From: an uncultured Pseudoduganella sp.
Lineage (GTDB): Bacteria; Pseudomonadota; Gammaproteobacteria; Burkholderiales; Burkholderiaceae_D
NCBI GenBank assembly: GCA_966211685.1
Contig: CBIHOX010000011.1
Location: 7,649 to 71,648 of the forward strand
Reading direction: 5' to 3'
Length of the DNA stretch: 64,000 bases
Below, one piece after another: positions 1,394 to 35,485 of this stretch; position 1 is the first letter of the stretch; the number at the start of each line of letters is the position of its first letter. The translations under genes were made by a program, and so were the position numbers. The notes beneath the pieces are model-generated. The model was given only the letters and a program-made list of their open reading frames with translations. It did not search any database and was not told the origin of the DNA.

Positions 1394-1409
1394 TGTGATG
1401 TACGTCACA
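1394..1409. promoter_or_regulatory. Perfect CRP-type box TGTGA-TGTACG-TCACA upstream of prtD
   Basis: Sequence aaTGTGAtgtacgTCACAtttt with AT-rich flanks. On the minus strand a -10-like CATAAT (1374-1369) / TAATGT (1372-1367) lies at class II spacing from the box centre. Confidence 0.8.
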
Positions 1410-5564: not shown

Positions 5565-5716
5565 GGTTGTCTCCGGAAGAAAGGCAAGAAGTTTGTCCTG
5601 AACGATGGATTGTACGTGAAATATTACCAACAATCAGTAGCAATATATCCACAGTAACTAAAATTCCACCGCCCTGCCCCGTCCCGTTCTACAGCCCGCT
5701 GCTCTCCGCCAGACTG

Positions 5717-9742: not shown

Positions 9743-9806
9743 GGAAACTCCGCTGAAAGATACTGGCCGGCTAGTAGTTACGCAAAATTTACCGTCAATG
9801 CCTGCT

Positions 9807-9894
9807 GTAGGCGGATTAGCGCGAAGCGCGTAATCCGCCACGCATGCGTGCCCGTGGCCTGCCTGCCGGATTACGCTGCGCTAATCCGGCCTAC
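9807..9894. repeat. Inverted pair of GTAG REPs
   Basis: GTAGgcggattagcgcgaagcgcgtaatccgcc (9807-9839) and gccggattacgctgcgctaatccggcCTAC (9865-9894); the second is the exact reverse complement of 1484-1513. Confidence 0.85.
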
Positions 9895-10004
9895 ATCGCT
9901 TTCCCTGGACGCACACGGGAATTTATGCGCAGCTATTTCGCTGTTGTTGGGCAACATTGTACGCACAAGGCGGGCCCCTGTGCTCGCCGGAATGCGGGGG
10001 TCCG

Positions 10005-12275: not shown

Positions 12276-12308
12276 CGTGAACGGTGTGAGTAAGCGATGC
12301 GGTGTATT

Positions 12309-12797
12309 TTAATGCAGCACCGCCCCCTCCGGCACCGGCGCAACCCCTGTCAGCCAGTCCGGCCAAGGCAGCGCCCAATAGCCCAGTTCACTTCCACGCC
12401 GCACGATGGCGAGCCACTGGCGCAGCGGCACGGTTTCCAGCAACAATTGCGCGCTGCCGCCGTCCGCCGATTTGAACGTCAGGCTCACCACGTGGTCGGC
12501 CAGCGCAATGTCGACCTCGTGCACCAGCCAGGCCACACTGTCCTGGGCCGCCTGCACGGGCGCCGAAGGCTGCAGGCTGGACTGGGCGGCCTGCTGCGCG
12601 AACTCTTGCGCCAGCGCGGGCAGCGCCTGCGCGCCGCCCTGCGTTTTCAGCCAGCCGACCAGGTGGTCGAGCAGCAGGCGCACCATGCGCCGTGTCAGCC
12701 ACAACACGACGGGTGCGCCGTCGCCCGTTTCCGCCGACATGCGCAAACGGTCTTCAAATGCCTCGTATTCAGTGGTGAGGCGGTGCAAGGTAATCAT
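12309..12797 (-). CDS. Hypothetical cytoplasmic protein (162 aa) inside the protease array
   Basis: GC3-rich ORF MITLHRLTTEYEAFEDRLRMSAE...VLWLTRRMVRLL...HEVDIA that fills the gap between P4 and P3. No signal peptide or transmembrane segment. Confidence 0.7.
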   Translation of the reverse strand: MITLHRLTTEYEAFEDRLRMSAETGDGAPVVLWLTRRMVRLLLDHLVGWLKTQGGAQALPALAQEFAQQAAQSSLQPSAPVQAAQDSVAWLVHEVDIALADHVVSLTFKSADGGSAQLLLETVPLRQWLAIVRRGSELGYWALPWPDWLTGVAPVPEGAVLH

Positions 12798-12899
12798 GTA
12801 AAGCCAGTCAGGTGCAGTGCCAAATCATGAAATTATGACAGAACGCACCGGCCGCATGCACCACATGGCATCCCTGCCCCACCATGCATGCCGCAGCGC

Positions 12900-14825: not shown

Positions 14826-14835
14826 GGTGCCTCCA

Positions 14836-14871
14836 CAAGAAAATACCCCGGCAGGCGGGCTGGCCGGGGTA
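14836..14871 (-). terminator. Terminator-like hairpin immediately upstream of P4
   Basis: Minus strand TACCCCGGC-cagcccgcct-GCCGGGGTA followed by TTTTCTTG. Confidence 0.5.
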
Positions 14872-14875
14872 CTTG

Positions 14876-14903
14876 ATTGTATGCCGAAAAGAATTCCTGT
14901 TAG
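14876..14903 (-). promoter_or_regulatory. Putative sigma70 promoter of P4 (conserved with the P5 promoter)
   Basis: Minus strand CTAACA-ggaattcttttcggca-TACAAT; 22 of 24 nt identical to 19331-19354. Confidence 0.55.
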
Positions 14904-14949
14904 AAGCCGGAATCACAGGAATCGCGGTGGCGATGCGTGCACGCCACCA

Positions 14950-19290: not shown

Positions 19291-19326
19291 GATGGTCGTG
19301 GGCGGTGCCCAGAAAATAGGCAGAGT

Positions 19327-19357
19327 AGGAATTGTACGCCGAAAACAATTCCTGACA
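19327..19357 (-). promoter_or_regulatory. Putative P5 promoter overlapped by a 9-bp inverted repeat
   Basis: Plus strand AGGAATTGT-acgccgaaa-ACAATTCCT; minus strand CTGTCA-N16-TACAAT. Confidence 0.55.
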
Positions 19358-19369
19358 GAAGGGTTTTGC

Positions 19370-20602
19370 TTACAACGCCGCCAGTCCTTCCACCCACGCC
19401 ACCTGCCCGGGCAGGCAGACCGTATTCAAATCATATGTTTCCTGGGCAAAGGCGCGGGCACGCGCGCCCAGGCGCGCCCGCTGCGCCGGGTCGCCCAGCA
19501 ATTCCGACACGGTCGACGCCAGGGCGGCAGCGTCGAAGAAATCCACCAGCCGGCCGGTGTCGCCGTCGCGGATGGCTTCGCGCACGGGCGCCGTATCGCT
19601 GGCCACGATGGTGCAGCCGATGCTCATGGCTTCCAGCATGCTCCAGCTCAGCACGAACGGATACGTGAGGTACACGTGCACCATCGACAACTGCAGCAAG
19701 GGGATAAACAAGTCGTAGGGAATCTTGCCCAGGAAGTGCACGCGCTCGCGCTGTTCCGGCGTCAACTGTCCCTGCACTTCCGTGGCAAAAATGTCTTTCC
19801 AGCTGCGGCCGTCAGGCGGACGGCTGCCGTAGCTGACGTCATCGCCACCCACGATCAGCACACGCGCCTGCGGGCGGTTGCGCAACAGTTCGGGCAGCGC
19901 ACGCATGAACACGTGGTAACCGCGGTATGGTTCCAGGTTGCGGTTGACGAAGGTGACGACTTCATCCTGCCGCGTCAGGCGGATGCCGGCCACCTGCAGC
20001 GCCACGTTGGGCGCCGGCGCGGCAGCCTCGGTATCGATGCCTTCGTGGACCACCGTGATGCGCGAACGGAAGCGTTCGGGGAACGTACTGGCCTGCCACA
20101 ACGTGGGGGAAATGCCGGCGTCGGCCACTTCCATGTGCAGCAGCATGTTGGTGTTCTTGACCAGCATGCGCGGCCCGGCTTCGGCCGAATCATTGGGGAA
20201 TTCCGGATCGAAACCGACATCGGCGCCGCTGGCGTGGTAGTAGAATTCGCAGCTCAGGCCCAGTTTCGCCTGCGGCCACACGTCCTTCAGGAACAGGCTT
20301 TCGCCCCAGCCCGGATGCGCCACGATGACGTCCGGCGCAAAGCCGGCCGCCTTCAGCTTCAGGGCGGCGCGATAGCAGGCTTCGCCGCGGATGATCTTGG
20401 TTTCGGTATCGGACAGCCACGGGTGGACATTGGCGCCGTTGCCGCGCTCGACCCCATATTGCAGCACTGTCACACCCTTCCACTGGCCGCTCAATTTGCG
20501 GTTCATGGTCAGGGTGACCACCTTGTGCCCGCGCGCCGCCAGTGCGGGCGCCAGGAACTTGTATTGGGCCGGGAAGTTTTGATGGATAAATAAGATATTC
20601 AT
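19370..20602 (-). CDS. Glycosyltransferase family 4 (GT-B fold)
   Basis: MNILFIHQNFPAQY, PDVIVAHPGWGE, RNLEPYRGYH, HVYLTYPFVLSWSMLEAMSIGC. Start moved to the ATG at 20602. Confidence 0.9.
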   Translation of the reverse strand: MNILFIHQNFPAQYKFLAPALAARGHKVVTLTMNRKLSGQWKGVTVLQYGVERGNGANVHPWLSDTETKIIRGEACYRAALKLKAAGFAPDVIVAHPGWGESLFLKDVWPQAKLGLSCEFYYHASGADVGFDPEFPNDSAEAGPRMLVKNTNMLLHMEVADAGISPTLWQASTFPERFRSRITVVHEGIDTEAAAPAPNVALQVAGIRLTRQDEVVTFVNRNLEPYRGYHVFMRALPELLRNRPQARVLIVGGDDVSYGSRPPDGRSWKDIFATEVQGQLTPEQRERVHFLGKIPYDLFIPLLQLSMVHVYLTYPFVLSWSMLEAMSIGCTIVASDTAPVREAIRDGDTGRLVDFFDAAALASTVSELLGDPAQRARLGARARAFAQETYDLNTVCLPGQVAWVEGLAAL

Positions 20603-20651
20603 GGCGCGCGGCCGCACCGGCGATACACCGGTGCGCCTGGATCGGCAGAGG

Positions 20652-21431
20652 TCAGTTCAGCTTGCTGAGGTTCAGTACACCGCCATCGTTGAGGAAGTCG
20701 GCCGGCTCGGTGGCCGCCAGTTCCTTCATCTCGGCAGCGATTTGCGCACGCACCTGCACCAGCTTGGACAGCAGCGGCAACTGGTGCATCGACAGCAACT
20801 GGCTGTACGCCACCGCCAGCGCGCCGCTGTCGGCCAGCTCGCGCAGCGCATCGCCCGGCAAGGCGTTCAGGGCGGCCTCGTCGACCTTGAACAGGCCATT
20901 GACGGTCTGTTCGCCCTGGGCGCCGCGCAGGGTCAGCGGCCATGGCGCAAGCACCTTGTGCTTTTGCAGCGCGGTGCATGCCATGGTTGCCTGCATGCGG
21001 CTGCGCTCGGCCTGCACCAGGAATTGCAGCATGCCGGCGATCTTTTGCGCCGGCTTGCCATCTTCTTCAAAGAAACGCTCGCCGGCGGCGTCCACCAAGC
21101 CGCTGGCTTCATCGATGCACAGCACGGCTTCATCATTCTGGCGCGCCAGGCGGAACGGATAGCCGCGCAGCGCGGCCGGCACGTACGAACCCAGCCAGCG
21201 GCCATCGGGCGCCACATACAGGTTGACGCCATCCTGCACACCCATCAGCGCCGACAGCACATAACCGTCGCCATCGGCCAGGAAAGCGATCGGCATGGCC
21301 GGCACGGCGGCAGCCAGTTCCGCGGCAGCCAGCGGCACGACGGCGCTGCCGGCGGCAAACAGGTAATTGGCAGGCGCCTTCCAGCGCAGGTTGGCGTGAC
21401 GCTCTTGGGTAATCAGTTGAATGGTGGTCAT
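20652..21431 (-). CDS. sapC: SapC family protein
   Basis: YLFAAGSAVVPLAAAEL...PIAF...LMG...NLYV...W...YVPAALRGYPFRL...LCID...LFEEDG...LQF...FKVDEAAL..L...L...GAL...YSQLLSM pattern of SapC. RBS GAGG before the ATG at 21431. Lies directly downstream of the S-layer-like gene. Confidence 0.85.
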   Translation of the reverse strand: MTTIQLITQERHANLRWKAPANYLFAAGSAVVPLAAAELAAAVPAMPIAFLADGDGYVLSALMGVQDGVNLYVAPDGRWLGSYVPAALRGYPFRLARQNDEAVLCIDEASGLVDAAGERFFEEDGKPAQKIAGMLQFLVQAERSRMQATMACTALQKHKVLAPWPLTLRGAQGEQTVNGLFKVDEAALNALPGDALRELADSGALAVAYSQLLSMHQLPLLSKLVQVRAQIAAEMKELAATEPADFLNDGGVLNLSKLN

Positions 21432-21485
21432 GGGGTCCTCTGTGAAATTTTTGCTGAAGGCGCTCATTATCGGGTGAACGTCCTC

Positions 21486-21605: not shown

Positions 21606-24600
21606 TTAAGCGGAGAAGTTGGTCGAGGTCAGCGAGTCAGCGGTCACGCCCGACAGGGTACCGATCAGGTCAACCACGATGTTAGCGGTGGTTGCGTCTG
21701 CGCCGGCAGCGGTCGAGGTTACAGCGTACACGTAGGCGTTGCCGCCGCCGTATGCAACAACCGTCAGGTTGCCCGAAGCGGTGGTGCCCAGGGCGCTGGC
21801 GATCAGGGTTTCAACTGCCAGGCCGTCGCCGACTTGGGTTGGAGCCAGGATCGAACCGGCAGCCGATTCGATCTCGATCACGCCACCGGTTGCCACGGTG
21901 ATTGCCGTGCCAGCTGGGTTGGTTACCGTCTGGAAGGCAGTCACGCCAGCCGATGCCACTTTCAGAACGTCAGCCGACGCGCCGGTTGCGGTGAAGCCGG
22001 TGATGGTGTCAGCGCCGGTGGTGATACCGGTTGCTGCGCCACCAGCCAGCGTGGTCAGCGTGAAGGTATCGGTGCCGGTGCCGGCCGTTGCGGTCTGCGC
22101 GGTGGCAGCGTGGAACGTGAAGTTGTTCGCACCGTTAGCCAGTACGTAGTTTTCCACGTTCACGTTACCCGTTGCGGTGCCGGCCGTCGTGAAGGTGACG
22201 GTTTCGGTACCAGCAGCGTTGATGGTCGTGAAGGCGTTGTGCTGTGCCACGGTCATCGATACGGAACCGCCCGAAGCGATGGTTGCCGTGGTGAAGCCTG
22301 CACCGATGGTAGCGCCAGCAATGTTGGAACCAGTTGCCAGGCTCACGATGTCAGCAGCGGTCACTTCGCCGTTCAGCGTACCGGTGAAGGTGCCGCTCAC
22401 GCCCACGGTTACCACGTCGGTTGCCGCGGTGCCGGTGACGGACTGGGCGCCGGTGATGCCGGTCACGGAGATGGCGTTACCAGCAGCATCGCTCAGGGTG
22501 TAGCTTTCCACGTTGGCGTTCGCTGCCACAGCGGTGATTGCCGTGTCAGTGAAGGTTACGGAGTCAGCACCGCCAGCAGCGTTGATGGTGGTGAAGCCAG
22601 CGTACTGAGCCGAGGTCAGCGACAGGTTGCCGGTCAGGTTCAGCACGGTCGCGCCGGTTACGGCACCAGCGTTCACGCCAGCGATGTTAGCGCCGGTGGT
22701 CGCGGTGATGCTGTCCAGAGCTTGCAGCGTGTAGGTACCGGTGACGGTGTTACCGCCCACGTTCACGGTGTCGGTGCCAGCGGAAACAACGTTCACGCCG
22801 GTATCCGATGCCAGAACCGTGAAGGTACGGCCGTCGGTGCCCAGGTTGTAGGTCTCAACACCAGCTTTACCGGTCACAGCGCCAGCGCCGGACAGGGTCA
22901 CGGTGTTGGCACCGGTTGCGCTCAGGGTGGTGATCGCGTTGTGCTGGGTAGCCGACATCGTTACTGCAGCCAGGCCGTCGATGGTCACGGATTCAGCGGT
23001 CAGCGCTGCGCCGCCGTTGATGCCTGCCAGGTTGGTGCCGGTGGTGGTCACAACCAGCGAGTCAGCAGCGCCGGCCAGAGCCAGGGTGCCGGTCGGGGTG
23101 GTGATCGCGCCGGTGTTCACCGTTACGTTGCCAGCGGCCGACACGTTCTGGGCAGCTGCGCCCAGCGTGAAGTTCGAACCGGTAGCCAGTACGTAGCTTT
23201 CAACAGCTGCGTCGCCAGTGTCGGTCAGAGCCGTGGTCACGGTCACGGTGTTGGTGCCCGTTGCGTTGAAGGTGGTTACAGCAACGTGCTGAGCAGCGGT
23301 CATCGAAACAGCAGCAATGCCGTTGATGGTCACGGTTTCAGCAGTCGTGTCCGCGCCGCCGTTGATGCCAGCCAGGCTGGTACCAGTGGTGGTCACAACC
23401 AGGGTGTCGCCAGCGCCAGCCAGAGCCAGGGTGCCGGTTGGAGCGGTGATCGCGCCGGTGTTCACGGTGACGTTGCCAGCAGCCGACACGTTCTGAGCAG
23501 CTGCGCCCAGGGTGAAGGTGGAGCCGGTTTGCACGGTGTACGACTCGATAGCTGCGTTACCGGTCAGGGTAGCAACATCGCTGATGGTCACGGATTGTGC
23601 GCCGGTAGCGGTGAAGCTGGTAGCAGCAGCCAGCGTGTCGAACTGAGCCTTCGTTGCGGTCAGGGCCAGGCCAGCAGCCAAGGTCACGGTGTTGAAGCCG
23701 GTCAGGTTGCCGATGGTCGAGGTGCCGCTGATGGTCAGCGTGTCGGTTGGCAGGGTTGCCGCGGCGTTGACTGCGCCGGTGGTGACGCCATCCTTGAACA
23801 CGTTGTTGGTCGCGTTCGCGGTGAAGTCCACGGTGTACGAGCTGCCCAGGGTGCCAACTTCGAAGTCAGCTTGTGCCAGCGATGCTGGGCTGTTCGACAG
23901 GTTCAGCTGGATGTCGTTCGCGTTCAGCGCGCCGTCGTTGTTGACGTCGATCCACAGGGTGTGGGTGGCGGTATCCAGAACGGCGTCGATGGTGCCGCCA
24001 GCCGAGATCGCGCCTTGAGCTGCGCCGAACGAGCTGTATGCGCCAACGTAGGTGACTGCGCTGGTGTACACGATCTTGTCGGTGCCCGATACGAAGTCGG
24101 TGATGGTGTCAGCATTGTCCGCGCCAACGTCGCTTGCCACGATGTAGAAGCGGTCGGTGCCGGTGCCACCGGTCAGCACGTCTTTGCCAGCGCCGCCCAG
24201 GATCGAGTCGTTGCCTGCGCCACCGATGATGGTGTCGACTTTCGCGCCGCCCAGGATGCGGTCAGCACCTGCGCCGCCGGTTACGCTGTACGAACCGTCC
24301 AGTTCAGCGGTACCAACGAAGTTGAAGGCAGCAGCAGCGTTGGTCAGCGCGGATGCGTCGACGTTCAGCGTTTTGCCAGCTTCCAGGTTGCTGTTCACGG
24401 TGGTGATCGATACGCCGTTGGCGCCGTTGGCTTCAACGAACACGTTTTCGATCTTCGTTACGCCGTTCAGGTTGGCAACTGCGTTGTCAGCAACAACTAC
24501 CAGCTTGTCACCGGTGTTGGTGCCGCCGGTGATCACGTCGGTGCCCGACAGCGAAGCTGCGGTCGAACGTACGGTCATCAGGCCGGTTGCCAGGCTTGCG

Positions 24601-27600
24601 TTGACGGTGTCGTTGCCGCCGGCGCCCAGGTTGATGGTCAGGTTGCTGGAGAAGCCTTCACCCACGTTCACGCTGTCGTCGCCCGTGCCAACGGTGATGT
24701 CTTTCAGGCCGTTCTTGTTGGCGATCGCGTTCACGTTGATGGTGTTGTTGCCGTTGCTCAGCACCAGGTTTTCAACGGAATCCCAGTTGTTGAAGATAGC
24801 GTCGTTCAGGACTGCGGCATCCGTCGTGATCTTGACGGTGTCGGTACCTGCGCCACCTTTCACGGTGTCGGCCGAAGTGATGCCTTCGGTTGCGACAACA
24901 GCGCTGTAGGTGAAGTTGAAGGTGTCGTCGCCGGCACCGCCATCCAGGTAATCAACGCCTTCCACGCCGGAAACTGCGCCGGTACCAGCGGTGATGGTGT
25001 CGTTGCCGTCGCCGCCAACGATCGAATCGTCGCCGTTGCCGCCGATGATCACGTCGTTGCCTGCACCGCCGGTGATGGTGTCTTTACCAGCAGCGGTGGT
25101 CACGGTCCAGCCGCCTGCGCCTACAGTGATCTTGCCGTTTGCGCCGCCGGTCAGGGTGACGGAGCCAGCGCCAGCGCCGGTGGTCACGGTGTGGGTTGCG
25201 GTCGAGCCAGCAGCCGAGTTCAGGGTGATGACGTCTGCGCCCGAGCCCGAGTTCACGGTGAAGGTGCCGGTGCTGGTGCCATTGCCCAGGGTGATGGTGT
25301 CAACGCCGGTGCCGCTGTTCACGGTCACGGATTGTGCAGCAGCAGCGGTCGCTGCGAACGACACGCCGCCCGACAGAGCGGTTGCGTCAACGGTAGCCAG
25401 CTTGGTCGAGCCGATGGCTGCGGTGATGACAACCTTGTCTTCGCCCGACAGGGTCAGCTTGGTCAGGTTGGCGCCATCCAGCGAAGCCGCGGTGATGGTT
25501 TCAACGGTGTTGCCTACGGCGCCGTTGTTGGCGTCTTTGGCGGTCACGGTGACGTTTTCAGCCTGGCTGAACAGCAGCGCGCCGGTCGCGTAGTTAGCGG
25601 TGTCGGTGGTCAGGTTCAGGGTCAGGTTGTCAGCTGCCGTGTCGGTAGCGTGGGTCACGGTCAGGTTGTCCGCGCCAGCGAAGCCGGTGGTTGCTGCACG
25701 GGCGTTCACGTTCACCACCACGTTGTTGGCAACGTTGTTCAGGGCAACAGCGCCATTGGTGCCGTTGTCGAACGAGAAGGTGTTGATCACGTGATCGGTG
25801 CTGCCCGAAGCCTTGGTGCCGCCGTTGCCTGCATCCAGAACACCAGACGTTGCGTCGGTGAAGGTCAGGTTTTCAACGTTGGTGGTGTTGGCGAACGTAT
25901 CGGCGTCAACAGTAACGCTTGCAATGGTGGTGGTCGACACGGTGTCGGTGCCGGTGCCGCCGTTGACGGTGTCGCTATTGCGGTAGTTTGCACCCAGCTT
26001 GATGGTATCGTCGCCGGCGCCGGCGTTCACGTTGGACTTGCCTACGTTAGCCGATACGTCCAGCGTGTCGCTGCCCGAACCGGAGGTTACCGACAGAGCG
26101 GTGCCAGCCAGGGTCACGTAGTTGCCCGAGGTGATGTTCAGGTTGCCGGTGAAGGCGCCTGCATCGATGGTGCCCACGGTGCCGTTCAGGCCAGCGGTGA
26201 TGGTCAGGTTCTGGTTACCAGCGATGGTGACTTTCGAAGCGTCCACGTTCAGCGCGCCGACGACCGATGCTGCGCCGCTGGTGGTGATGGCCACGGTTTC
26301 GATGCCGGTGTTGCCAGCGCCAACCAGTGCGTCGGTGTTGGTACCGATCTTGATGGTGCCGGTGCTGTTACCGTTCAGCAGGATCTTCTGGGTGTCGGCT
26401 GCGCCAGCAACAGCGGCAGCTTTGTAAGCCAGGGTCAGGTCGGAAGCGTTCAGTGCGTTAGCAACTTCCAGGTCAACGATCTGGCCGATGTTTTTCACGG
26501 TCAGGTTGTTGTTCGAGGACGACGAACGAACGGTCTTCAGTGCGGAGTCAACGTTTTCCAGGCCCAGGATGGTCGCGCCTTCAGCTGCTGGAGCTTGAGC
26601 TTGAACTTCCAGAACTTCGATGTTTTTCACGACGAAGCCTTGTACCTGGCTTGCGTTGGTGATGGCAGCGTTGTTGGTGGACGAGGTAACCACGCGCAGG
26701 GTGTCGGTGCCCACGCCGCCGTCGATCGAGTCGGACGATTGCAGGGTGGTGGATTGACCGGTCTGGCCGATGATGGTGTCATCGTTCAGGCCAGCGATGA
26801 CCACGTCGGTTGCGCTGATGGTCAGGGCCTTGCTCTGTGGGCCGGCTTCAACAACGGCGTCTTGAGCAACTTTCTGGTGAGCAGCAACCAGCAGTTGAGC
26901 AGCAACCAGCGGATCGTTGATGGCTTTGATGGCGGCAGCGGTAGCGGCCGAAGCAACGTCGTCAGCGGTCGACTTGGTGGTGCCTACAACAGCGGCGAAG
27001 TCAGCAGCGGCGGTGTTAGCAACAACAACGCTGGCCAGTGCTTTTTCGATCGCGGTTTTTTCGTTGGTGGCAGCGGTAGCCAGAGCCGTGGCGTTGGCAA
27101 CGGATTTGGACAGGTCGAATGCAGCTTTCGCGTCAACGTACGCTTTGGTTGCTGCAGCGGCAGCGTCAGCGTCGGTCTTGGCGGTAGCCAGTGCCGTGGT
27201 GTAAGCACCTTTCTTGGCATCGGAGATCGCTTGAGCAGCAGCTTCAACAGCGTCTTCACCAGCTTTGATGGCGTCGTCAACAACGGTCTTGGCAGCGGCA
27301 GCAGCGGTCACAACGGTGTTAGCGTTGGTCACGGCGGTAGCGGCAGCGGTGTTGTCAGCGGCGTTGACGGTCTTGTCAGCGGCAGCTTTCAGTGCGTCAG
27401 CAGCGGTCTTGGCATCGGCAGCGGCGGCAACAGCGGCGTCTGCAGCGGTCTTCGCGTTGGCGATGGTGGTCGGCACCTTGGCGACAGCAGCGGCTGCGTC
27501 GGCGATGGTCTTGTTGCCAGCGGTCAGGTTGGCGGCAGCGGTGTTCGAAGCAGCCAGCTTGGTGGCGGCGTCTTGCTGTGCTTTAGCCAGGTTGAAGTCG

Positions 27601-28928
27601 GCAACCGACTTGGTCGCGCCGGTAGCAGCGATTTCGTCAGTGTTACCACCAGCAACGGCAGCGTTGTACGCGTCGGTAGCAGCTTTGGCATCGGCTTGTG
27701 CGGTGGTCAGCACGCCTTGGGCTGCGTCGGATGCGGCTTTGGCATCGTTTGCTGCGGTGGTCAGAGCGGCAACGTCAACAGCGGCAGCGGCCGTTTTCAG
27801 GGCAGCGGCAGCGTCTTGGTCGATCTTGATCTGGGCAGCAGCGGTGGTAGCAGCAGCGGCCTTGGCGGTAGCGTTGGCGTTAGCGGTGGTAACGGCAGCT
27901 TGTGCGTCGATCACGGCTTGCACCAGTGGCTTCTCAGCAACAGCAGCGGCTACGTGGGCAGCAGCGTCGGTCACCAGCTTGGCAGCAGCGGTCTGAGCAG
28001 CAGCAGCGTCTGCAACAGCTTTGATTGCCAGCGCGTCGTCAGCGGTGGTGGCGGTTTTCAGTGCTTTGGCCAGGTAGTTGTCGGCAGCGGCTTTCGCGGT
28101 GTCGGCAGCGGTCTTGGCAGCGTCGGCAGCAGCTTTCTCGGTGTCGGCAGCGGTCTTGGCAGCGTCAACCTTGGCGATGGTGTCCGAACCTTCCAGGGCA
28201 ACTTTAGCAGCTGCGGCAGCGGTAGCGGCGGTAGCGGCAGCGGTGGCGGCAGCGGTTACTGGCGCGGTCAGGGCGGCGGCAGCCAGGTTCGCGTCGAACT
28301 CGGCAGCAGCGTTGGCGTCGTAGGTGCGCAGCACTTCGTTGGTCACCAGTGCCAGGGCAGCAGGTGCGGTAGCAGCAGCCAGCGAGGCAGCGTCCTTAAC
28401 CGAGTTCAGGAACGACGTACCCCATGCGTTTGCCTGTGGGCCGCTGTAAGCCAGTTGCAGGGCAACGCTGTCAGCGATTTTTGCGGTGAACGCGGTAGCA
28501 GCAGCCAGCTTGCTTGCAACGGTTTCAACGTCTTGGCCTTTTGCGTTCGAGAACATCGTGTTCAGCGTGAAGCTGACAGCTTGCGCTTTGACTTCGGCTT
28601 TCTCAGCAGCGGTCAGTTTCGTGTTGGCGGCGTTGGCGGCATCAACACTGTTCAGGTAGTCGGTGTAGAAGTTCAGGCCTTCCTGGTCCGGCAGACGACC
28701 GAACGAGTTCTGGTACATCTTGGCAACCAGTTGCTGGTTGCTCAGTTTCGGCGTTACATAGATCGCCTTGTACTCTTCGTTGTTGGCAAAGAAGTTTGCC
28801 ACGGCTTTCATGTCGATCTTGTTTGCAGCCAGCAGATCTTCCCAAAACTTCAAACCGGCTGGGTCAGCGGGACGGTTGTAGTAAGCGATATACAGTTTTT
28901 GCAGATCGGAGGTGTACTGTGTTGCCAT
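21606..28928 (-). CDS. Giant S-layer-like T1SS substrate (2440 aa): N-terminal SapA/DUF4214-type domain, ~490-aa Ala-rich stalk, Thr/Gly/Asn-rich beta-helix region with RTX motifs
   Basis: N-terminus DLQKLYIAYYNRPADPAGLKFW...NQQLVAKMYQNSFGRLPDQEGLNFY. Many GGxGxD motifs, no signal peptide, RBS AGGAG, high-expression codon bias, and adjacency to sapC and a T1SS gene. Confidence 0.85.
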   Translation of the reverse strand: MATQYTSDLQKLYIAYYNRPADPAGLKFWEDLLAANKIDMKAVANFFANNEEYKAIYVTPKLSNQQLVAKMYQNSFGRLPDQEGLNFYTDYLNSVDAANAANTKLTAAEKAEVKAQAVSFTLNTMFSNAKGQDVETVASKLAAATAFTAKIADSVALQLAYSGPQANAWGTSFLNSVKDAASLAAATAPAALALVTNEVLRTYDANAAAEFDANLAAAALTAPVTAAATAAATAATAAAAAKVALEGSDTIAKVDAAKTAADTEKAAADAAKTAADTAKAAADNYLAKALKTATTADDALAIKAVADAAAAQTAAAKLVTDAAAHVAAAVAEKPLVQAVIDAQAAVTTANANATAKAAAATTAAAQIKIDQDAAAALKTAAAAVDVAALTTAANDAKAASDAAQGVLTTAQADAKAATDAYNAAVAGGNTDEIAATGATKSVADFNLAKAQQDAATKLAASNTAAANLTAGNKTIADAAAAVAKVPTTIANAKTAADAAVAAAADAKTAADALKAAADKTVNAADNTAAATAVTNANTVVTAAAAAKTVVDDAIKAGEDAVEAAAQAISDAKKGAYTTALATAKTDADAAAAATKAYVDAKAAFDLSKSVANATALATAATNEKTAIEKALASVVVANTAAADFAAVVGTTKSTADDVASAATAAAIKAINDPLVAAQLLVAAHQKVAQDAVVEAGPQSKALTISATDVVIAGLNDDTIIGQTGQSTTLQSSDSIDGGVGTDTLRVVTSSTNNAAITNASQVQGFVVKNIEVLEVQAQAPAAEGATILGLENVDSALKTVRSSSSNNNLTVKNIGQIVDLEVANALNASDLTLAYKAAAVAGAADTQKILLNGNSTGTIKIGTNTDALVGAGNTGIETVAITTSGAASVVGALNVDASKVTIAGNQNLTITAGLNGTVGTIDAGAFTGNLNITSGNYVTLAGTALSVTSGSGSDTLDVSANVGKSNVNAGAGDDTIKLGANYRNSDTVNGGTGTDTVSTTTIASVTVDADTFANTTNVENLTFTDATSGVLDAGNGGTKASGSTDHVINTFSFDNGTNGAVALNNVANNVVVNVNARAATTGFAGADNLTVTHATDTAADNLTLNLTTDTANYATGALLFSQAENVTVTAKDANNGAVGNTVETITAASLDGANLTKLTLSGEDKVVITAAIGSTKLATVDATALSGGVSFAATAAAAQSVTVNSGTGVDTITLGNGTSTGTFTVNSGSGADVITLNSAAGSTATHTVTTGAGAGSVTLTGGANGKITVGAGGWTVTTAAGKDTITGGAGNDVIIGGNGDDSIVGGDGNDTITAGTGAVSGVEGVDYLDGGAGDDTFNFTYSAVVATEGITSADTVKGGAGTDTVKITTDAAVLNDAIFNNWDSVENLVLSNGNNTINVNAIANKNGLKDITVGTGDDSVNVGEGFSSNLTINLGAGGNDTVNASLATGLMTVRSTAASLSGTDVITGGTNTGDKLVVVADNAVANLNGVTKIENVFVEANGANGVSITTVNSNLEAGKTLNVDASALTNAAAAFNFVGTAELDGSYSVTGGAGADRILGGAKVDTIIGGAGNDSILGGAGKDVLTGGTGTDRFYIVASDVGADNADTITDFVSGTDKIVYTSAVTYVGAYSSFGAAQGAISAGGTIDAVLDTATHTLWIDVNNDGALNANDIQLNLSNSPASLAQADFEVGTLGSSYTVDFTANATNNVFKDGVTTGAVNAAATLPTDTLTISGTSTIGNLTGFNTVTLAAGLALTATKAQFDTLAAATSFTATGAQSVTISDVATLTGNAAIESYTVQTGSTFTLGAAAQNVSAAGNVTVNTGAITAPTGTLALAGAGDTLVVTTTGTSLAGINGGADTTAETVTINGIAAVSMTAAQHVAVTTFNATGTNTVTVTTALTDTGDAAVESYVLATGSNFTLGAAAQNVSAAGNVTVNTGAITTPTGTLALAGAADSLVVTTTGTNLAGINGGAALTAESVTIDGLAAVTMSATQHNAITTLSATGANTVTLSGAGAVTGKAGVETYNLGTDGRTFTVLASDTGVNVVSAGTDTVNVGGNTVTGTYTLQALDSITATTGANIAGVNAGAVTGATVLNLTGNLSLTSAQYAGFTTINAAGGADSVTFTDTAITAVAANANVESYTLSDAAGNAISVTGITGAQSVTGTAATDVVTVGVSGTFTGTLNGEVTAADIVSLATGSNIAGATIGAGFTTATIASGGSVSMTVAQHNAFTTINAAGTETVTFTTAGTATGNVNVENYVLANGANNFTFHAATAQTATAGTGTDTFTLTTLAGGAATGITTGADTITGFTATGASADVLKVASAGVTAFQTVTNPAGTAITVATGGVIEIESAAGSILAPTQVGDGLAVETLIASALGTTASGNLTVVAYGGGNAYVYAVTSTAAGADATTANIVVDLIGTLSGVTADSLTSTNFSA

Positions 28929-29029
28929 TTAAAGGGCTCCTAAGGGATTCATTGAAAGTCAATATTGCAGGGGCTCAAACCCGCTACAACCCAACGTACC
29001 GAATACTCGCAGATGGATTTGCGTACTAA

Positions 29030-29045
29030 TGTGACGGTCATCACA
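29030..29045. promoter_or_regulatory. Perfect CRP-type box TGTGA-CGGTCA-TCACA upstream of the S-layer gene
   Basis: taaTGTGAcggtcaTCACAaaa. With the centre set at -41.5, the minus strand gives an extended -10 TG-C-GAGTAT at 29011-29003. Confidence 0.85.
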
Positions 29046-29287
29046 AAACAACACAAATCCTCTGTTTATTAGTAATTTATTCACTAAAAAAATACACGGC
29101 GGGACATTATCCGAGATGGCAAGAGGTAAAGCAAGGATTAGCAACTTTCCCGGCAGGGTACCCCCAACGCAATCCTTGCCAGCCCCATGGACAGCGCCAG
29201 CCGGCCGTTAACAGCGCGGCTAACTTACCATAAAGGCACTGATAACGGGCGCTACAGATGGGTCTGAATAAAAAAGTCACAAGCATA

Positions 29288-29330
29288 TAAAAAGCGCAAG
29301 CAAGGCTAATGCCGTGCTTGCGCTTTTATT
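29288..29330. terminator. Terminator downstream of the FecR-domain gene (probably bidirectional)
   Basis: AAAAGCGCAAGCA...TGCTTGCGCTTTT stem with A/T runs on both sides. Confidence 0.75.
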
Positions 29331-29369
29331 AACTTTGATTGGCGTGCAATTAGCGCACGCGAATTGGCG

Positions 29370-30782
29370 TCACTTGGGCTTGGTCCAATACGTGGCGCCT
29401 TCCGTGGTGCGGGCCGCATCGAGACGCCCCTGGAACAGGTAGGCCGCAGTGCCCCCATTCTCCGAACTCAACACCCCTGTCACATTGACATTGCTGTTGT
29501 TGTTGTAACGTGGCGACTCTCCATAGAAGCGGCCATCGCTCCCCACCGTGCCGCTGGAACGCATGTTGAAACGCTCGGCCTGCGCCACCAGGTCAAAACT
29601 GGTGGTGTACGTTTTTTGGTCAAAATTGAAATTCAATACACCGTTTTCCACTTTGGCCACTTCCGCCGGCGTGAAACTGTCGCGCAAAATATACGCTTCA
29701 CTGTCTTTCAAGGTGAAACCAGCTGAACTGCGTTCCGGTATTTGATAATCGGCGCCCGGCGTGCGGAACAAGGCAAAGTTGCCTTTCATGTCCACCAGCT
29801 CCGCACCGCTCTTCAGCATGGCGACCAGGTCCACCTTGGCGGTTTTATCGAGCAACGGTTGCCAGCGTCCCCAGACGATCTTCCGCTCAGGCTGCGGCGG
29901 TTCAGGCGGCGTCACCACGGGCGGGTCCACCACCGGCGGCGTCACCACCGGCGGGACCACCACCACCCCGCCGCCCGTGTCGGGTTTTTCCAGCACTGGC
30001 GGCACGGTAACGATCGGGTCCGGAGTCGTCGTTGGCGGCTGCTGCACCACTTGCGCCACGCGCTGCTTCAACTCCTGGTCTTTTTTTGCTTCCAGGCTGG
30101 GTTCCGGCGGCCCGCCCGCCATGCCGCCTTTAGGTTCATCCGTGCGTGGCGGCGCCACCACATCCGGCGCCAAAGTGCCAGACGGCAACAATTGTGGCGC
30201 CGCCTGGCCGCGGCGCACCTGCAACAGCAGGCCGCGCTGCGCGGCGGACAATTCACGGCTGGCCTTGCCTTCGCATGGGCCGGTACCGTCCGGGCTGCAC
30301 GCGCCGGCAAATCCACTAATAGTAATACCGCCAGACAGCACGGTGACCCGGGTTACTTCCTGGTCGGCCGACACGGCGAAATCCGTCCCACGCACCCCAA
30401 TGGCCGCCACCGGCGTATTGAAACGGAAATTCTGGCGCGCCTGCTTGACGGCTTCGCCGGACTGGCTGCGCGCCACCCCTTCCAGCAATTCCAGCTTGAT
30501 GCGGGTATTGGCCGGGTTGGCGGCGTCGATGTGGTAATTGACGATGCGGGCCTTGCTCGACGGCCGGACAATGAACAGGCCGTTGTCGATGGTTTTCACA
30601 TACACATAGCCATCGCCTCCGGTGACCAGCATATCCCCTTCCCGCACCACGCCGTTCAATTCGGCGGCGCGGTCGGCGACCTTGACCTGGCCTGCGACAA
30701 AAATGATTTTCCCGGCATCGGCCGCGAAGGCTGTTGCGCCCCACAAGCCGAGCCCGACGATAGCTAATAGATTACGCAACAT
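29370..30782 (-). CDS. Exported FecR-domain protein with Pro-rich linker and C-terminal beta-rich domain
   Basis: Signal peptide MLRNLLAIVGLGLWGATAFA, FecR-type ...FRFNTPVAAIGVRGTDFAV...VTVLSGGI, linker PVVTPPVVDPPVVTPPEPPQPE, alternating aromatic/polar strands at the C-terminus. Confidence 0.85.
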   Translation of the reverse strand: MLRNLLAIVGLGLWGATAFAADAGKIIFVAGQVKVADRAAELNGVVREGDMLVTGGDGYVYVKTIDNGLFIVRPSSKARIVNYHIDAANPANTRIKLELLEGVARSQSGEAVKQARQNFRFNTPVAAIGVRGTDFAVSADQEVTRVTVLSGGITISGFAGACSPDGTGPCEGKASRELSAAQRGLLLQVRRGQAAPQLLPSGTLAPDVVAPPRTDEPKGGMAGGPPEPSLEAKKDQELKQRVAQVVQQPPTTTPDPIVTVPPVLEKPDTGGGVVVVPPVVTPPVVDPPVVTPPEPPQPERKIVWGRWQPLLDKTAKVDLVAMLKSGAELVDMKGNFALFRTPGADYQIPERSSAGFTLKDSEAYILRDSFTPAEVAKVENGVLNFNFDQKTYTTSFDLVAQAERFNMRSSGTVGSDGRFYGESPRYNNNSNVNVTGVLSSENGGTAAYLFQGRLDAARTTEGATYWTKPK

Positions 30783-30837
30783 ATGATTCCTTTTCCTTCT
30801 GGCGCCCGGATATGGTGATGGGCGATGGCGCGGATGT

Positions 30838-30867
30838 GCCGGATTACGCTGCGCTAATCCGGCCTAC
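30838..30867. repeat. GTAG REP
   Basis: gccggattacgctgcgctaatccggcctac, identical to 9865-9894. Confidence 0.85.
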
Positions 30868-30967: not shown

Positions 30968-30983
30968 AGTGACGACCATCACA
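30968..30983. promoter_or_regulatory. Near-perfect CRP-type box AGTGA-CGACCA-TCACA in the fecR/cyclase divergent region
   Basis: 9/10 consensus match. GATAAT on the minus strand (30947-30942) lies at class II distance, facing the FecR-domain gene. Confidence 0.7.
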
Positions 30984-31128: not shown

Positions 31129-33066
31129 TTGTTGAGTTTTACGGCATTGTCCACGTGGCGTTCCTTTTTCCGTATACCGGCCATCCCGGCGCATGCGGTG
31201 CTGGCCGCGATCGGGCTGGCTGCCGTGCTGTTGACCGCGGCCGCCCAGTGGGGCATGCCGGCCGGCGCCACCTTCCCCGCCGATGAATGGCTGCGCGACC
31301 GCATCCTGCGCCTGCGCAGCGCGCCCACGCCGGAGCCGCGCATCCTGGTGGTCGATATCGATGAAGCCAGCCTGGCAGAAGTAGGCGCCTGGCCGTGGCC
31401 GCGCGAGCGGCTGGCCACTTTGGCGGAAATCCTGCTGACCCATTACGAAGCACGCGGCGTGGCCTTCGATATCCTGCTGCCCACGGCCGGCGATCCGCAG
31501 GGCGACCAGCGCCTGATGATGCTGGCGGCGCATGGGCCGCTGGTGCTGGCGCAGGCATTCGATTATCCGGAAGCCCAGCGCCAGCCGCTGCGCGCCGGAC
31601 AGCTCGGCGGCGCCCGCCCCGGCCGCGGCACGGCCCAGCTGGAAGCTTCCGGCTACATCGCCAACCACCCGCAATTCGCTAATGCGCGCAATATCGGCAA
31701 CATCGGCTTCCTGCCCGATGCCGATGGCGCGCTGCGCCGCGTGCCGCTGCTCACCAGTTTCAATGGCGCGCTGTATCCTTCGCTGTCGCTGGCGCTGCTC
31801 GATTGCTGCAGCGGCGGCCCCAAACTCGTGGTGACGGACCCGGCGCCGTTGCGGGTGGATTTCCAGCGCGACTGGAATGCCTATACCGTGGTCAGCGCCG
31901 CCGACATCCTCGACGAACGCATTGCCCCCGAGAGCGCTTCCGGCCGCCTGGTGCTGGTCGGCTCCTCGTCGATGGGCACCGGCGACCGCGTGACCACACC
32001 ATTGGCGCGCAACCGCCCCGGCCTCGGCGTGCAGGCCGCCGTGCTGTCGACCATCCTGGACCGCCAGCAAGGACTGGCGCCCCGCCCCTGGCCGGGCCGC
32101 CTGATCGCCTGCGTGTTTACCGCCATCGTGGCGCTGGTGAGCGTGTGGAGTTTCCCGCGCCTGTCCGCCATGGCCAGCGTCAGCCTGCTCGGCGCCGGCA
32201 TGGCGGCGTGGCTGGGCGTGGCGTGGGTGGTGTTGCCGCACGACGACGCCATGGTCAGCAGCGCCCCGCTGGCCAGTTGCCTGTTCTTGCTGGCGTTTGC
32301 CATTCCTTACCAGTGGCACGTCAGCCAGCGCCGTTCGCGCCGCCTGCTCGATACCCTGCGCCAATATGTGGCGCCCGCCGTCGTGACGGAACTGTTGCGC
32401 AGCGACATGGCCGATCCCTTGCAGCCGCGCCTGCTCGACGTCACCACCCTGATTGCCGACCTGCAGGGTTACACGTCGCACGTGGAAGCGCTGCCGCTCG
32501 ATGAAGCCGCGGAATTGACCAGCAGTTTCCTCGATTGCCTCACCGCCCCCGTGATTGAACAGCAGGGCACCTTGGATAAATATACCGGCGACGGCTTGGT
32601 GGCATTCTGGGGTGCGCCGTTGCCCAATGATAACCATGCTGATTTGGCATTGGACGCGGCACGTGATATTGTAGCCAGAGTGCAACAATTGAGCGCCCAG
32701 CGCCGTGCCGCCGGCTTCCCGCCGCTGCGGGTGCGGATCGGCATTGAAAGCGGCCCCGCCATGGCGGGCGATTTCGGCAGCGTGTTCCGCAGCGTGTATA
32801 CCGCGGTCGGCGACAGTGTGAACACGGCGGCGCGCCTGGAGCAGGCCGCCAGGGATTTCCCGCACGACGTCATCATTGGCGCCGGTACAGCACAACGCAC
32901 GCGCCGCCACCGGCTCATGTTGCTGGGCGAACGGCAATTACGCGGCAAAGATAAACCAACCATTCTTTATACGTTTGACAGCAGCATGGATGTCTCCCTC
33001 ACCAACGGCCTCACTGGCGCCAGCCAGGCTGCCGCCACGCCGGCAAAGGCAGCGTTTACTGCATGA
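31129..33066 (+). CDS. CHASE2-domain class III adenylate cyclase (start codon uncertain)
   Basis: N-terminal TM, CHASE2 motifs ILVVDIDEASL...GAWPWPRERLA...FDILLP...D.DGALRR, three TMs, cyclase motifs LIADLQGYT, DKYTGDGLVAFWG and YTAVGDSVNTAARLE. Both Asp residues, the ATP-specifying Lys/Thr and the Asn/Arg are present. Confidence 0.92.
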   Translation: MLSFTALSTWRSFFRIPAIPAHAVLAAIGLAAVLLTAAAQWGMPAGATFPADEWLRDRILRLRSAPTPEPRILVVDIDEASLAEVGAWPWPRERLATLAEILLTHYEARGVAFDILLPTAGDPQGDQRLMMLAAHGPLVLAQAFDYPEAQRQPLRAGQLGGARPGRGTAQLEASGYIANHPQFANARNIGNIGFLPDADGALRRVPLLTSFNGALYPSLSLALLDCCSGGPKLVVTDPAPLRVDFQRDWNAYTVVSAADILDERIAPESASGRLVLVGSSSMGTGDRVTTPLARNRPGLGVQAAVLSTILDRQQGLAPRPWPGRLIACVFTAIVALVSVWSFPRLSAMASVSLLGAGMAAWLGVAWVVLPHDDAMVSSAPLASCLFLLAFAIPYQWHVSQRRSRRLLDTLRQYVAPAVVTELLRSDMADPLQPRLLDVTTLIADLQGYTSHVEALPLDEAAELTSSFLDCLTAPVIEQQGTLDKYTGDGLVAFWGAPLPNDNHADLALDAARDIVARVQQLSAQRRAAGFPPLRVRIGIESGPAMAGDFGSVFRSVYTAVGDSVNTAARLEQAARDFPHDVIIGAGTAQRTRRHRLMLLGERQLRGKDKPTILYTFDSSMDVSLTNGLTGASQAAATPAKAAFTA

Positions 33067-34325
33067 CGCATCGCCTTGCCCTGACAGCCTGGCTGCTGGC
33101 CATGGCCGCGCTGCCGGCCGCGGCGCAGGACGCCCCCCGGGAGCCCGCGCCGCCGCTGCCCGTGGTGGAAATACCCGGTCCGCACCAGCAGGATTGGTAC
33201 CAGGCCGCGCTGCAGTCGATTGCCGAGGGCCGCAAGCATGACGCCAGCGCGGAACTGGAGCGTGTCATCCGCAATGAACCGCTGCACGCCGGCGCCTGGC
33301 TGGACCTGGCGCTGATCCAGTGCAGCCTGGGCCACGCCGAGGAAGCCTTCCGCCTGTTCGGTATCATCGAGGAGCGCTTCAAGCCGCCGCCGGCATTCCT
33401 GGAATTGATCGCCAGTTACCGCCAGCAGGGATGCGACCGGTGGGAAGTGCAAAGCCAGGCCAGCCTCACGCTGGCGCGCGGCATCGACCAGAACGTCAAC
33501 CAGGGCCCGAGCGCCAGCAGTTACTCGGTCGGCACCGCCGCGCTCAGCGTGGAATATCCGGTGTCGCCGGAATTCAGGCCGAAACACGACCAGTATACGT
33601 CGCTGTCCGGCGATTATCTGCGCGACCTTACCAGCAATGGCACGGTCGGCATCGTGCAATTCCAGTTCCGGCGCAATGATGAATTGAAACAATATGACAA
33701 TGCATCGCTGTTCGGCAGCGTCGAGTCGCCGTGGCGCCTGGGCAACTTCAGCGGCCGCCATGTCGGCACGGCCGGCCTGCTGACACTGGGCGGCCACCTG
33801 TACCAGCGCCAGGCCCAGTTGCAGGAGCGCGTCACGGTACCCCTGCCCGGCAAGGTGCAATTGACGATGATGACCAGCATGACGCGCCTGAATTACGTCA
33901 CGTTGAACAATTTCGATTCCAGCACGGCGGAACTGCGCGGCGTGCTCAGTTACAGTGCCGGCGCCGGCAGCGTGCGCGCCGCCATCAGCCTGCTCAATGA
34001 CCATGCGATGGCCGACCGCCCCGGCGGCAACCGCCATGGCCAGGTGCGCTCGGTGTTGTTCCGCCAGAACCTGGGCATGCGCATCACGGGCGAACTCGGC
34101 TACACCGACCAAACCTGGCAAAGCGCCACCGCATATGCGCCGGGCGCACTGGACATCATCCGGCAGCAGCGCACGCAATCGCTGACGGCCAGCCTGTTTT
34201 ACCCGATCGGCAAGAACCAGATGGTGCAGCTGGAAGCGCGGAAAGTACGAAATCAGGAAAACATTCCGATCTTTCAGTACAATAATCGGCAGTTACAGCT
34301 AAGTTGGCAGTGGCAGGGTTTGTGA
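33063..34325 (+). CDS. Exported TPR plus outer-membrane beta-barrel protein (Slam/NsrA-like architecture)
   Basis: Signal peptide, TPR-like helices (EPLHAGAWLDLALIQCSLGHAEEA), amphipathic beta strands ending QLQLSWQWQGL. ATGA overlap with the cyclase stop. Confidence 0.75.
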   Translation: MTHRLALTAWLLAMAALPAAAQDAPREPAPPLPVVEIPGPHQQDWYQAALQSIAEGRKHDASAELERVIRNEPLHAGAWLDLALIQCSLGHAEEAFRLFGIIEERFKPPPAFLELIASYRQQGCDRWEVQSQASLTLARGIDQNVNQGPSASSYSVGTAALSVEYPVSPEFRPKHDQYTSLSGDYLRDLTSNGTVGIVQFQFRRNDELKQYDNASLFGSVESPWRLGNFSGRHVGTAGLLTLGGHLYQRQAQLQERVTVPLPGKVQLTMMTSMTRLNYVTLNNFDSSTAELRGVLSYSAGAGSVRAAISLLNDHAMADRPGGNRHGQVRSVLFRQNLGMRITGELGYTDQTWQSATAYAPGALDIIRQQRTQSLTASLFYPIGKNQMVQLEARKVRNQENIPIFQYNNRQLQLSWQWQGL

Positions 34326-34334
34326 GTGTAAAGA

Positions 34335-34679
34335 ATGGCAAATGAAATTTGGGGTATCGCTTTACTGGTTGGTATCCTGGGCCTGTCGGCCGGTTGCCTG
34401 GTCCCCAACCGGTGGTTGCCTGCCCGCATGCCCAACGATAAGTTGATGCATTTCGTCGCGTTTGCCGTCCTGGCCGGAGTGGCCATGCAAATCGCACAAA
34501 CCCGTATCGAAGCGGCCTGGTGGATGCTGGGCTTGCTGGTGGCGGGTTGGATAATTGAATGTCTGCAACAATTGCTGCCGGACCGCGGCTTCAGCTGGCG
34601 CGACATTGCCGCCAACGCGGCCGGCATCGTATTTGCCGCCGGCTGTACCCTGGCCTACCAAAGCCTGCCGATTTCGTGA
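34335..34679 (+). CDS. VanZ-like small membrane protein
   Basis: NDKLMHFVAFAVLA...IECLQQLLPDRGFSWRDIAANAAGI, a VanZ-like pattern. Confidence 0.8.
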   Translation: MANEIWGIALLVGILGLSAGCLVPNRWLPARMPNDKLMHFVAFAVLAGVAMQIAQTRIEAAWWMLGLLVAGWIIECLQQLLPDRGFSWRDIAANAAGIVFAAGCTLAYQSLPIS

Positions 34680-34732
34680 CGCAGATCACACGATACTGCT
34701 CGACTGACGCCGCTCCATGAGATAATCACTGC

Positions 34733-35485
34733 ATGAGTTCGACGCCCCTGCCTGCCAACGCGCCTGCGCAAACCGCCACTGCCGCGCCTTCCGCCGCTCC
34801 CGCCAGCGAAGAGCGCAATGTCCAGGTGCACCTGCGCAAAATCCCGCTGCTGGCGAATTTGAACGATGAGGAAATTGCCCGCGTGAAGGCGGACATCCGC
34901 ATCCGCCAATACGCCAAGCGTGAAGTCGTGCTGCACAAGGGCGGCAGCGGCGACGGCTTGCTGTTCCTGCTGGCGGGCCAGTTGCAAGTCATCGACGTGA
35001 CCGAGGATGGCCGCGCGATCGGCTTGCGCATGCTGGTGCCGGGCGACTTTTTCGGCGAAATCGCGCTGATCAACAATACCACCCGCTCCGCTTCCGTGGT
35101 GGCCACCACCGACGTGCTGGTGGCGTTCCTGCCGGCGCCGACCGCGATGCACCTGTTTTCCCATTCGCCGTCGGTGGCGCGCCAGATGCTGCAACACCTG
35201 GCGCAAAAGATCCAGCGCGACTCGGAATTCCGCGCGCTGCTCAGCATCAACAACACGGCCAAGCGCATTTACACCTACCTGGTGCTGATGCAAAAGAAAA
35301 ACCCGGACGGCACCGTGGTGGAAAACCTGCCGACTCACCAAGACATTGCCAACATGATCAACACCAGCCGCGAAACCGTGACGCGCGCGCTGTTGACCTT
35401 GGTGCAACAGGGTATCGTGCAAAAAGAACCGAATCGCCTGGTCATCAAGGATCCGGAAGCGCTGCAAAAGCTGGTGCAGGGCTGA
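34733..35485 (+). CDS. Crp/Fnr family cNMP-binding transcriptional regulator
   Basis: cNMP pocket GDFFGEIAL...RSASV; HTH THQDIANMINTSRETVTRAL; no FNR-type Cys cluster. Confidence 0.93.
   Translation: MSSTPLPANAPAQTATAAPSAAPASEERNVQVHLRKIPLLANLNDEEIARVKADIRIRQYAKREVVLHKGGSGDGLLFLLAGQLQVIDVTEDGRAIGLRMLVPGDFFGEIALINNTTRSASVVATTDVLVAFLPAPTAMHLFSHSPSVARQMLQHLAQKIQRDSEFRALLSINNTAKRIYTYLVLMQKKNPDGTVVENLPTHQDIANMINTSRETVTRALLTLVQQGIVQKEPNRLVIKDPEALQKLVQG

Follow-up and report, generated by a model that had tools for sequence, protein, structure and literature searches.

At galP1 of Escherichia coli, a CRP site at -41.5 is combined with an extended -10 element, and the R-E-x-x-x-R recognition helix of E. 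coli CRP reads TGTGA. The palindrome TGTGA-N6-TCACA is also used by two global virulence regulators of the CRP family, Xanthomonas Clp and Pseudomonas Vfr; some proteins of this family with the same DNA motif are c-di-GMP-responsive or ligand-free, and Clp is governed by c-di-GMP. RTX-type S-layer proteins secreted by a type I secretion system (T1SS) are encoded at loci such as rsaA-rsaDE of Caulobacter and sapA-sapCDEF of Campylobacter fetus. S-layer-type coats are usually regarded as constitutive and very highly expressed, and we know of no description of rsaA/sapA-type S-layer genes as Crp-controlled. The site of Clr, a Crp-like regulator of Sinorhizobium meliloti, is TGTT-N8-AACA. Class II CRP-dependent promoters of E. 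coli, galP1 among them, were reportedly described by Busby and Ebright in 1999.

In S. meliloti, the CHASE2 cyclases CyaD1, CyaD2 and CyaK together with outer-membrane NsrA raise cAMP, and Clr activates a small regulon (PMC5498481; PMC13001267), whose targets include the FecR-domain protein SMc02177 and the TPR protein SMb20495 (PMC5498481). We have analysed a stretch of 64,000 nucleotides (hereafter the window) from an uncultured Pseudoduganella sp. (contig CBIHOX010000011.1 of assembly GCA_966211685.1), and by analogy the CHASE2-cyclase/Clr pathway appears to be the nearest described relative of the system that it encodes. Both have a CHASE2 class III cyclase, a Crp-family regulator and FecR-domain/TPR parts, and a small set of envelope genes as targets, which is a prediction in our case. 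They differ in output, which is a DUF4214/RTX surface protein and a T1SS here and root-infection control there, and also in that the genes in the window stand in one compact cassette and the operator is a canonical CRP palindrome. Our reading, which we regard as probable, is that the palindrome in front of the surface-protein gene serves as the operator of a Crp-family regulator encoded 5.7 kb away, that the promoter would be of the cAMP-activated class II type, and that the regulon would be small and local.

Box 1 and the surface-protein promoter

A sequence-only reading of this DNA had pointed to a perfect CRP-type box with all ten half-site positions matched, and this box is indeed present. 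Box 1 (TGTGACGGTCATCACA; 29030-29045, minus strand), which we predict to act as operator for the Crp-family regulator, is a TGTGA-N6-TCACA palindrome that reads TGTGATGACCGTCACA on the gene strand with both half-sites perfect; its centre is at 29037.5, and the ATG of the 2440-codon ORF lies 101 nt downstream. On the minus strand, the region from the box to the promoter runs ...gttgtttTGTGATGACCGTCACAttagtacgcaaatccatcTGcGAGTATtcggtacg...cttAGGAGccctttaaATG, and the extended -10 element TG-C-GAGTAT that had been proposed is found 21 nt past the box (29003-29011, minus strand; TG-C at 29011-29009, GAGTAT at 29008-29003). When the -10 hexamer is set at -12 to -7, as in the numbering used here, box 1 is centred at -41.5 and +1 falls at 28996, and our recomputation thus returned the same values as those first given. 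The predicted 5' leader (28929-28996, minus strand), whose start near 28996 comes from this arithmetic, contains AGGAG at 28941-28937 and is followed by the ATG at 28928; the start site, the activation and the cAMP dependence are all what we infer.

Box 1 covers the -35 region, as had been noted, and no TTGACA-like hexamer was found at the -35 position in the window. A strict scan of 28850-29450 for sigma-70 promoters and terminators gave no stand-alone promoter and no terminator. Class II promoters are characterized by a site centred near -41.5 that overlaps the -35 region and by the absence of a functional -35 hexamer; both features are seen here, and in an alignment of 62 promoters the information content at the -35 position is low. 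The activator-type geometry proposed earlier is supported, because a class II-like spacing from the box to the (TGn) -10 is kept in relatives without a -35. As at galP1 and other E. coli class II promoters, TGTGA-N6-TCACA lies over the -35 region, a TGn-extended -10 is present without a -35 hexamer, and the -10 begins some 29.5-30.5 bp from the box centre; unlike those promoters, the regulator here is no CRP orthologue, and the predicted regulon is a handful of local promoters. Two other candidates, TTGCTT-N17-GATAAT upstream (29134-29106) and TTGTAG-N17-AATATT in the leader, were rejected as the main promoter because relatives do not keep them. The 2-kb bin containing the surface-protein promoter has the lowest GC of the window (0.564).

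When the 62 promoters were aligned on the box, the half-sites were invariant, with TGTGA-Y-G-n-n-C-R-TCACA as the preferred extended motif, and the information was low for about 17 nt past the box, leaving no -35. A conserved block T-C-T-G-n-C-A-T-n-A-T then represents the TGn and the -10, in which position -11 is A and position -7 is T; counted from the box start, TG stands at +35/36 and CATnAT at +38-43, and positions +45 to +55, around the predicted start, are also conserved. Upstream of the box, A/T tracts are phased at about one helical turn. The extended -10 of the relatives has the form TGn-(C/G)ATnAT at N21-22, and GAGTAT of the window is weaker than their -10. Among 80 promoters, which are not 80 independent species because the same-genus and named sets overlap and some genomes occur in both, box and -10 are separated by 22 nt in 58 cases and by 21 nt in 16, the window among them, and gaps of 20 and 23 nt occur in 2 and 4 cases. 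The box centre is at -42.5 in the 58 and at -41.5 in the 16; the TG extension is found in 75.

We also counted boxes in the genome (6.39 Mb in 308 contigs, 64.7% GC, 90.8% complete). Two perfect boxes are present against 2.1 expected from base composition; both are intergenic and both lie inside the window, where 0.02 would be expected. The sequence-only reading had looked to such a count for an enrichment at this locus, and what emerged was that both copies belong to the locus and that the total shows no genome-wide excess. In crude intergenic DNA (about 14% of the genome), the two perfect boxes compare with 0.45 expected (P about 0.07). Boxes with at most one mismatch number 41 genome-wide, four of them in the surface-protein/regulator locus; 27 of the 41 were counted in such intergenic DNA, and the comparison with expectation there gave 24 against 14.6 +/- 3.8. 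Shuffling of the 441-bp upstream region yields a perfect box with a probability of 3.6e-4. As evidence against chance, the box count within this one genome is only suggestive.

The locus in relatives and its further boxes

Conservation was examined in three sets of loci. A perfect box precedes the orthologous gene at 19/19 same-genus loci; at 61/61 loci of Massilia, Duganella, Pseudoduganella and Rugamonas, at most 330 nt upstream, these 61 being the loci that contain a DUF4214-type gene among 80 named loci; and at 11/11 loci of other genera (47-67% GC), namely those that reach the surface-protein gene among 12 sampled loci of the same family, all 12 of which have the same synteny as the window. 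The orthologous surface proteins have no more than 29-42% identity and lengths of 643-2440 aa, yet the box is kept. We consider the palindrome to be more than chance because it is conserved in relatives and clustered near the regulator gene, and on this basis it is predicted to be a real, deeply conserved regulator-binding site. If the palindrome were due to chance, or formed a hairpin in RNA or DNA without a protein partner, a genome-wide count equal to the compositional expectation would fit, but this explanation is effectively refuted by the conservation: across more than 90 loci the half-sites stay invariant while the N6 spacer and the flanks diverge, which is identity and not covariation, and the distance from box to -10 is fixed. 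Furthermore, Rfam gave nothing at gathering score across 28800-29450, which argues against a known riboswitch or sRNA.

The gene order is also conserved, running from the gene with N-terminal DUF4214 through a perfect box, the FecR gene, a further box, the cyclase, the TPR gene and (VanZ) to Crp, and it is identical in 19/20 same-genus loci, the exception being a second, non-syntenic regulator copy. One relative, L055 (G006:C1:885000-904800), has a second regulator copy with 69% identity elsewhere in its genome, and the cyclase, the FecR gene and the boxes are absent nearby. In another relative, L058 (G026:C5), two identical perfect boxes (TGTGACGGGCATCACA) at 7548 and 10850, 3.3 kb apart, suggest a tandem duplication of the surface-protein gene with its promoter. 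Regulator orthologues with 66-86% identity occur in 31/36 same-genus genomes. Four of the five same-genus genomes in which the regulator was not detected, one of them 100% complete and one a single contig, have no perfect box and no cyclase orthologue. In the fifth, which is 87% complete, there are three boxes, including one on a short contig, and the locus may therefore simply be unassembled.

Box 2 (1394-1409, minus strand), the only other perfect box of the genome, lies upstream of the gene for a PrtD-type T1SS ABC permease/ATPase (1-1257, minus strand; TIGR01842 at 549 bits against a cut-off of 510), which runs off the window and has its likely ATG at 1257; the box is followed by N19 and CATAAT (1374-1369). 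A perfect box precedes the PrtD-type gene in 19/19 relatives, and this promoter, with the box centre at -39.5, has TCACA-N19-GATAAT in 18/20 cases (CATAAT in the window). Box 3 (TGTGATGGTCGTCACT; 30968-30983, minus strand) is a 9/10 match directed toward the gene for an exported FecR-domain protein of 470 aa (29370-30782, minus strand), the predicted third target, and is followed by N20 and GATAAT (30947-30942), which places its centre at -40.5. It has at most one mismatch in 77/79 loci and is perfect in 40, and the N20-GATAAT-like -10 is kept on the side facing the FecR-domain gene, with nothing conserved toward the cyclase.

The three promoters therefore have a common design, a box over the -35 position and a recognisable -10 without a -35, and those of the T1SS and FecR genes should need help because they have neither a TG extension nor a -35. 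The spacings of N19, N20 and N21-22 (centres at -39.5, -40.5 and -41.5/-42.5) mean that not all three can be at the optimum, and this spread of 2-3 bp weakens a strict class II reading. A fourth site with a 9/10 box (CGTGACGCAGATCACA; 34675-34690) overlaps the VanZ stop, 43 nt before the regulator ATG. Autoregulation of the regulator through it was considered and rejected, as the box is absent from 80/80 related loci and is separated by 30 nt from the closest -10 (GATAAT, 34721-34726), and the site is probably outside the conserved regulon. A REP-like palindrome (GCCGGATTAGCGCAGCGTAATCCGGC), of which the genome has at least 11 copies, occurs at 30837-30862, within a stretch of about 130 nt that is inserted into the leader of the FecR gene and that relatives do not have, and at 1488-1513, about 80 nt upstream of box 2.

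The secreted-type surface protein of 2440 aa (21606-28928, minus strand) consists of an N-terminal DUF4214 helical domain, an Ala/Thr-rich region and RTX repeats; it is Cys-free, with a pI of 4.2, 21.5% Ala and 15.5% Thr. The third-position GC of its gene is 0.72, against 0.80-0.90 in the neighbours. On its 3' side, the same strand carries genes for a SapC-family protein, a GT4 glycosyltransferase, five serralysin-like M10/RTX proteins with C-terminal DUF4214 and the T1SS ABC protein. On its 5' side is the FecR-domain gene, and divergent from it are the genes for the CHASE2 cyclase, the TPR-containing protein (33063-34325, plus strand; syntenic in relatives), a VanZ-like protein and the Crp/Fnr regulator, beyond which lie genes for glycosyltransferases and for a transporter of the O-antigen ABC-2/Wzt type. 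Just past the surface-protein gene, 2-7 kb from box 1, 19/19 same-genus relatives have the T1SS gene with its box. In the window, about 20 kb (1593-21467) with the SapC, GT4 glycosyltransferase and five M10/RTX/DUF4214 genes and a 162-aa ORF is interposed, and none of these genes is preceded by a box with at most one mismatch.

The sequence-only reading had called this an S-layer gene, and there are features for and against this designation. RTX repeats, an acidic Cys-free composition, a PrtD-type exporter and a SapC gene nearby, and the O-antigen cluster are typical of T1SS-secreted S-layer proteins, and in these features, as well as in the Ala/Thr-rich sequence, the locus is like those of rsaA and sapA. 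The N-terminal domain is not RsaA-like: an AF2 model of its 240 residues (28209-28928) is all-helical (pLDDT 88.8), and a Foldseek search against the PDB gave only weak matches, to the phycobilisome linker (PF00427-type), and neither an RsaA-like fold nor an RsaA-type anchor; the domain is described here as DUF4214/phycobilisome-linker-like. The protein has no match in NCBIfam, and its homologues are named only as DUF4214-domain or beta-strand-repeat proteins. S-layer-like surface protein is a defensible name; its S-layer identity would be a guess from context, as would its rank as the most abundant protein of the cell.

The neighbouring regulator and cyclase

The predicted reader of the boxes is the Crp/Fnr-family regulator (34733-35485, plus strand), encoded 5.7 kb from box 1, which has a cNMP_binding domain (PF00027 at 5e-20) and HTH_Crp_2 (PF13545 at 9e-17). 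Its phosphate-binding cassette FFGEIAL..TRSAS and its recognition helix SRETVTR, the latter of CRP-type specificity, are kept as SRETVTR and FGE..R(S/T)AS in 80/80 orthologues. The best matches among solved structures are cAMP-binding members of the CRP family, namely Thermus thermophilus 4ev0, GlxR 3r6s, Mycobacterium tuberculosis CRP, E. coli CAP and S. meliloti Clr 7pza, and the cNMP pocket residues FGE..RSAS match those of cAMP-bound T. thermophilus CRP. The combination of an RE..R helix with TGTGA-N6-TCACA outside the enterobacteria is shared with Clp and Vfr, which differ in that the intact cNMP pocket is accompanied here by an adjacent, dedicated adenylate cyclase.

If a transcription factor other than the neighbouring Crp-family protein were to read the box, it could be sought in the part that the 90.8% complete assembly lacks, where a second RE..R regulator could be missing, and co-localisation of regulator and box is no proof of binding. 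We consider this improbable, however, because the RE..R helix is unique to this regulator among the 15 cNMP-domain ORFs of the genome, the other 14 being FNR-like or without an HTH, because synteny is strict in more than 90 loci, and because the four regulator-less genomes have no boxes. Classical global catabolite control by cAMP-CRP on the E. coli model, in which the surface-protein gene would be one target of many, appears more improbable still. The half-sites of the box are identical to the E. coli CRP consensus and CRP is the best NCBIfam name, but the regulator scores 80.1 bits on the CRP equivalog NF008732, whose cut-off is 266, and is, as judged from its sequence family, not an E. coli-type global CRP or CRP orthologue. 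The box counts and the distribution of the regulator point the same way: the genome has only the two perfect sites, both at the locus, and of its 41 sites with at most one mismatch only four are there; in five complete or near-complete relatives, 14/20 perfect boxes are within 12 kb of the regulator gene; and the regulator is present in only 18/64 sampled genera of the family. The regulon is most likely small, local and dedicated, rather than a part of global catabolite control.

The adjacent cyclase gene (31129-33066, plus strand) encodes a CHASE2 domain (PF05226) fused to a predicted competent class III adenylate cyclase domain (PF00211), and Crp, FecR-domain and TPR genes stand with it in one syntenic cassette, in which the FecR gene has a conserved box and -10, as would be expected for a system of the CHASE2-cyclase/Clr type. 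The best PDB match of the catalytic domain is Spirulina CyaC (1wc0, E = 6e-26). As in CyaC, both metal-binding Asp residues and the substrate Lys are kept, as are the Thr found in place of Asp in this subclass and, for the transition state, Asn and Arg, and because this CyaC-type set is complete, the protein looks like an active adenylate cyclase; the catalytic motifs are kept in 64/68 orthologues. Only the pocket residues of the regulator and the neighbouring cyclase point to cAMP as the probable ligand.

These residues bear on another possibility, in which the proposed site and local regulator would hold but with a different logic: the regulator would repress or tune a self-sufficient extended -10 promoter, or respond to another ligand (cGMP, c-di-GMP) or to none. 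The TGn extension found in 75/80 surface-protein promoters can replace a -35, and because an extended -10 promoter is able to fire on its own, the site could modulate or repress; the range of N19-N22 over the three target promoters is also in its favour. We nevertheless consider it unlikely, though with more weight than the alternatives discussed above, because the T1SS and FecR promoters, which lack a TG extension and a -35, are expected to need help, and because the FGE..RSAS pocket is that of a cAMP-bound CRP and the neighbouring cyclase has the ATP-type Lys/Thr residues of CyaC. Activation by a cAMP-bound local regulator at a class II-like promoter is thus the reading that we prefer.

A predicted signal-dependent coat

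In the mechanism that we propose on this basis, the CHASE2 cyclase would sense an envelope signal, possibly together with the FecR-domain and TPR proteins, and raise cAMP; cAMP-Crp would bind near -41.5 and recruit RNA polymerase as class II activators do, galP1 of E. coli being the textbook analogue; and the DUF4214/RTX protein, the type I exporter and the FecR-domain protein would be switched on together via the three boxes. It is quite possible, and we put it forward tentatively, that a self-contained relay from envelope to cAMP, made up of the FecR-domain protein, the CHASE2 cyclase, the TPR protein and the dedicated Crp, lets an external cue gate the production and export of the outermost coat. 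If so, the three boxes would co-induce the coat protein, the type I exporter and the sensor itself, giving a positive feedback. In the literature searched, we found nothing on this system in Massilia, Duganella or Janthinobacterium, nor on a Crp-controlled S-layer, and to our knowledge it would be the first cAMP-gated S-layer-type system.

The circuit is conserved in at least 13 genera of Oxalobacteraceae-type Burkholderiales, and it would represent a second case of the rhizobial CHASE2-Clr pathway, though with different wiring. In the CHASE2 case of Sinorhizobium, a plant protein signal has been reported. The present system may offer a handle on what CHASE2 cyclases and their FecR-domain partners sense, and its three conserved promoters form a small, readily testable regulon. 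The conserved operator, the dedicated Crp and the envelope-sensing cyclase together suggest signal-dependent switching of the coat, and hence that Massilia, Duganella and their relatives in soil, water and the rhizosphere may turn on the coat and its exporter jointly in response to a signal.
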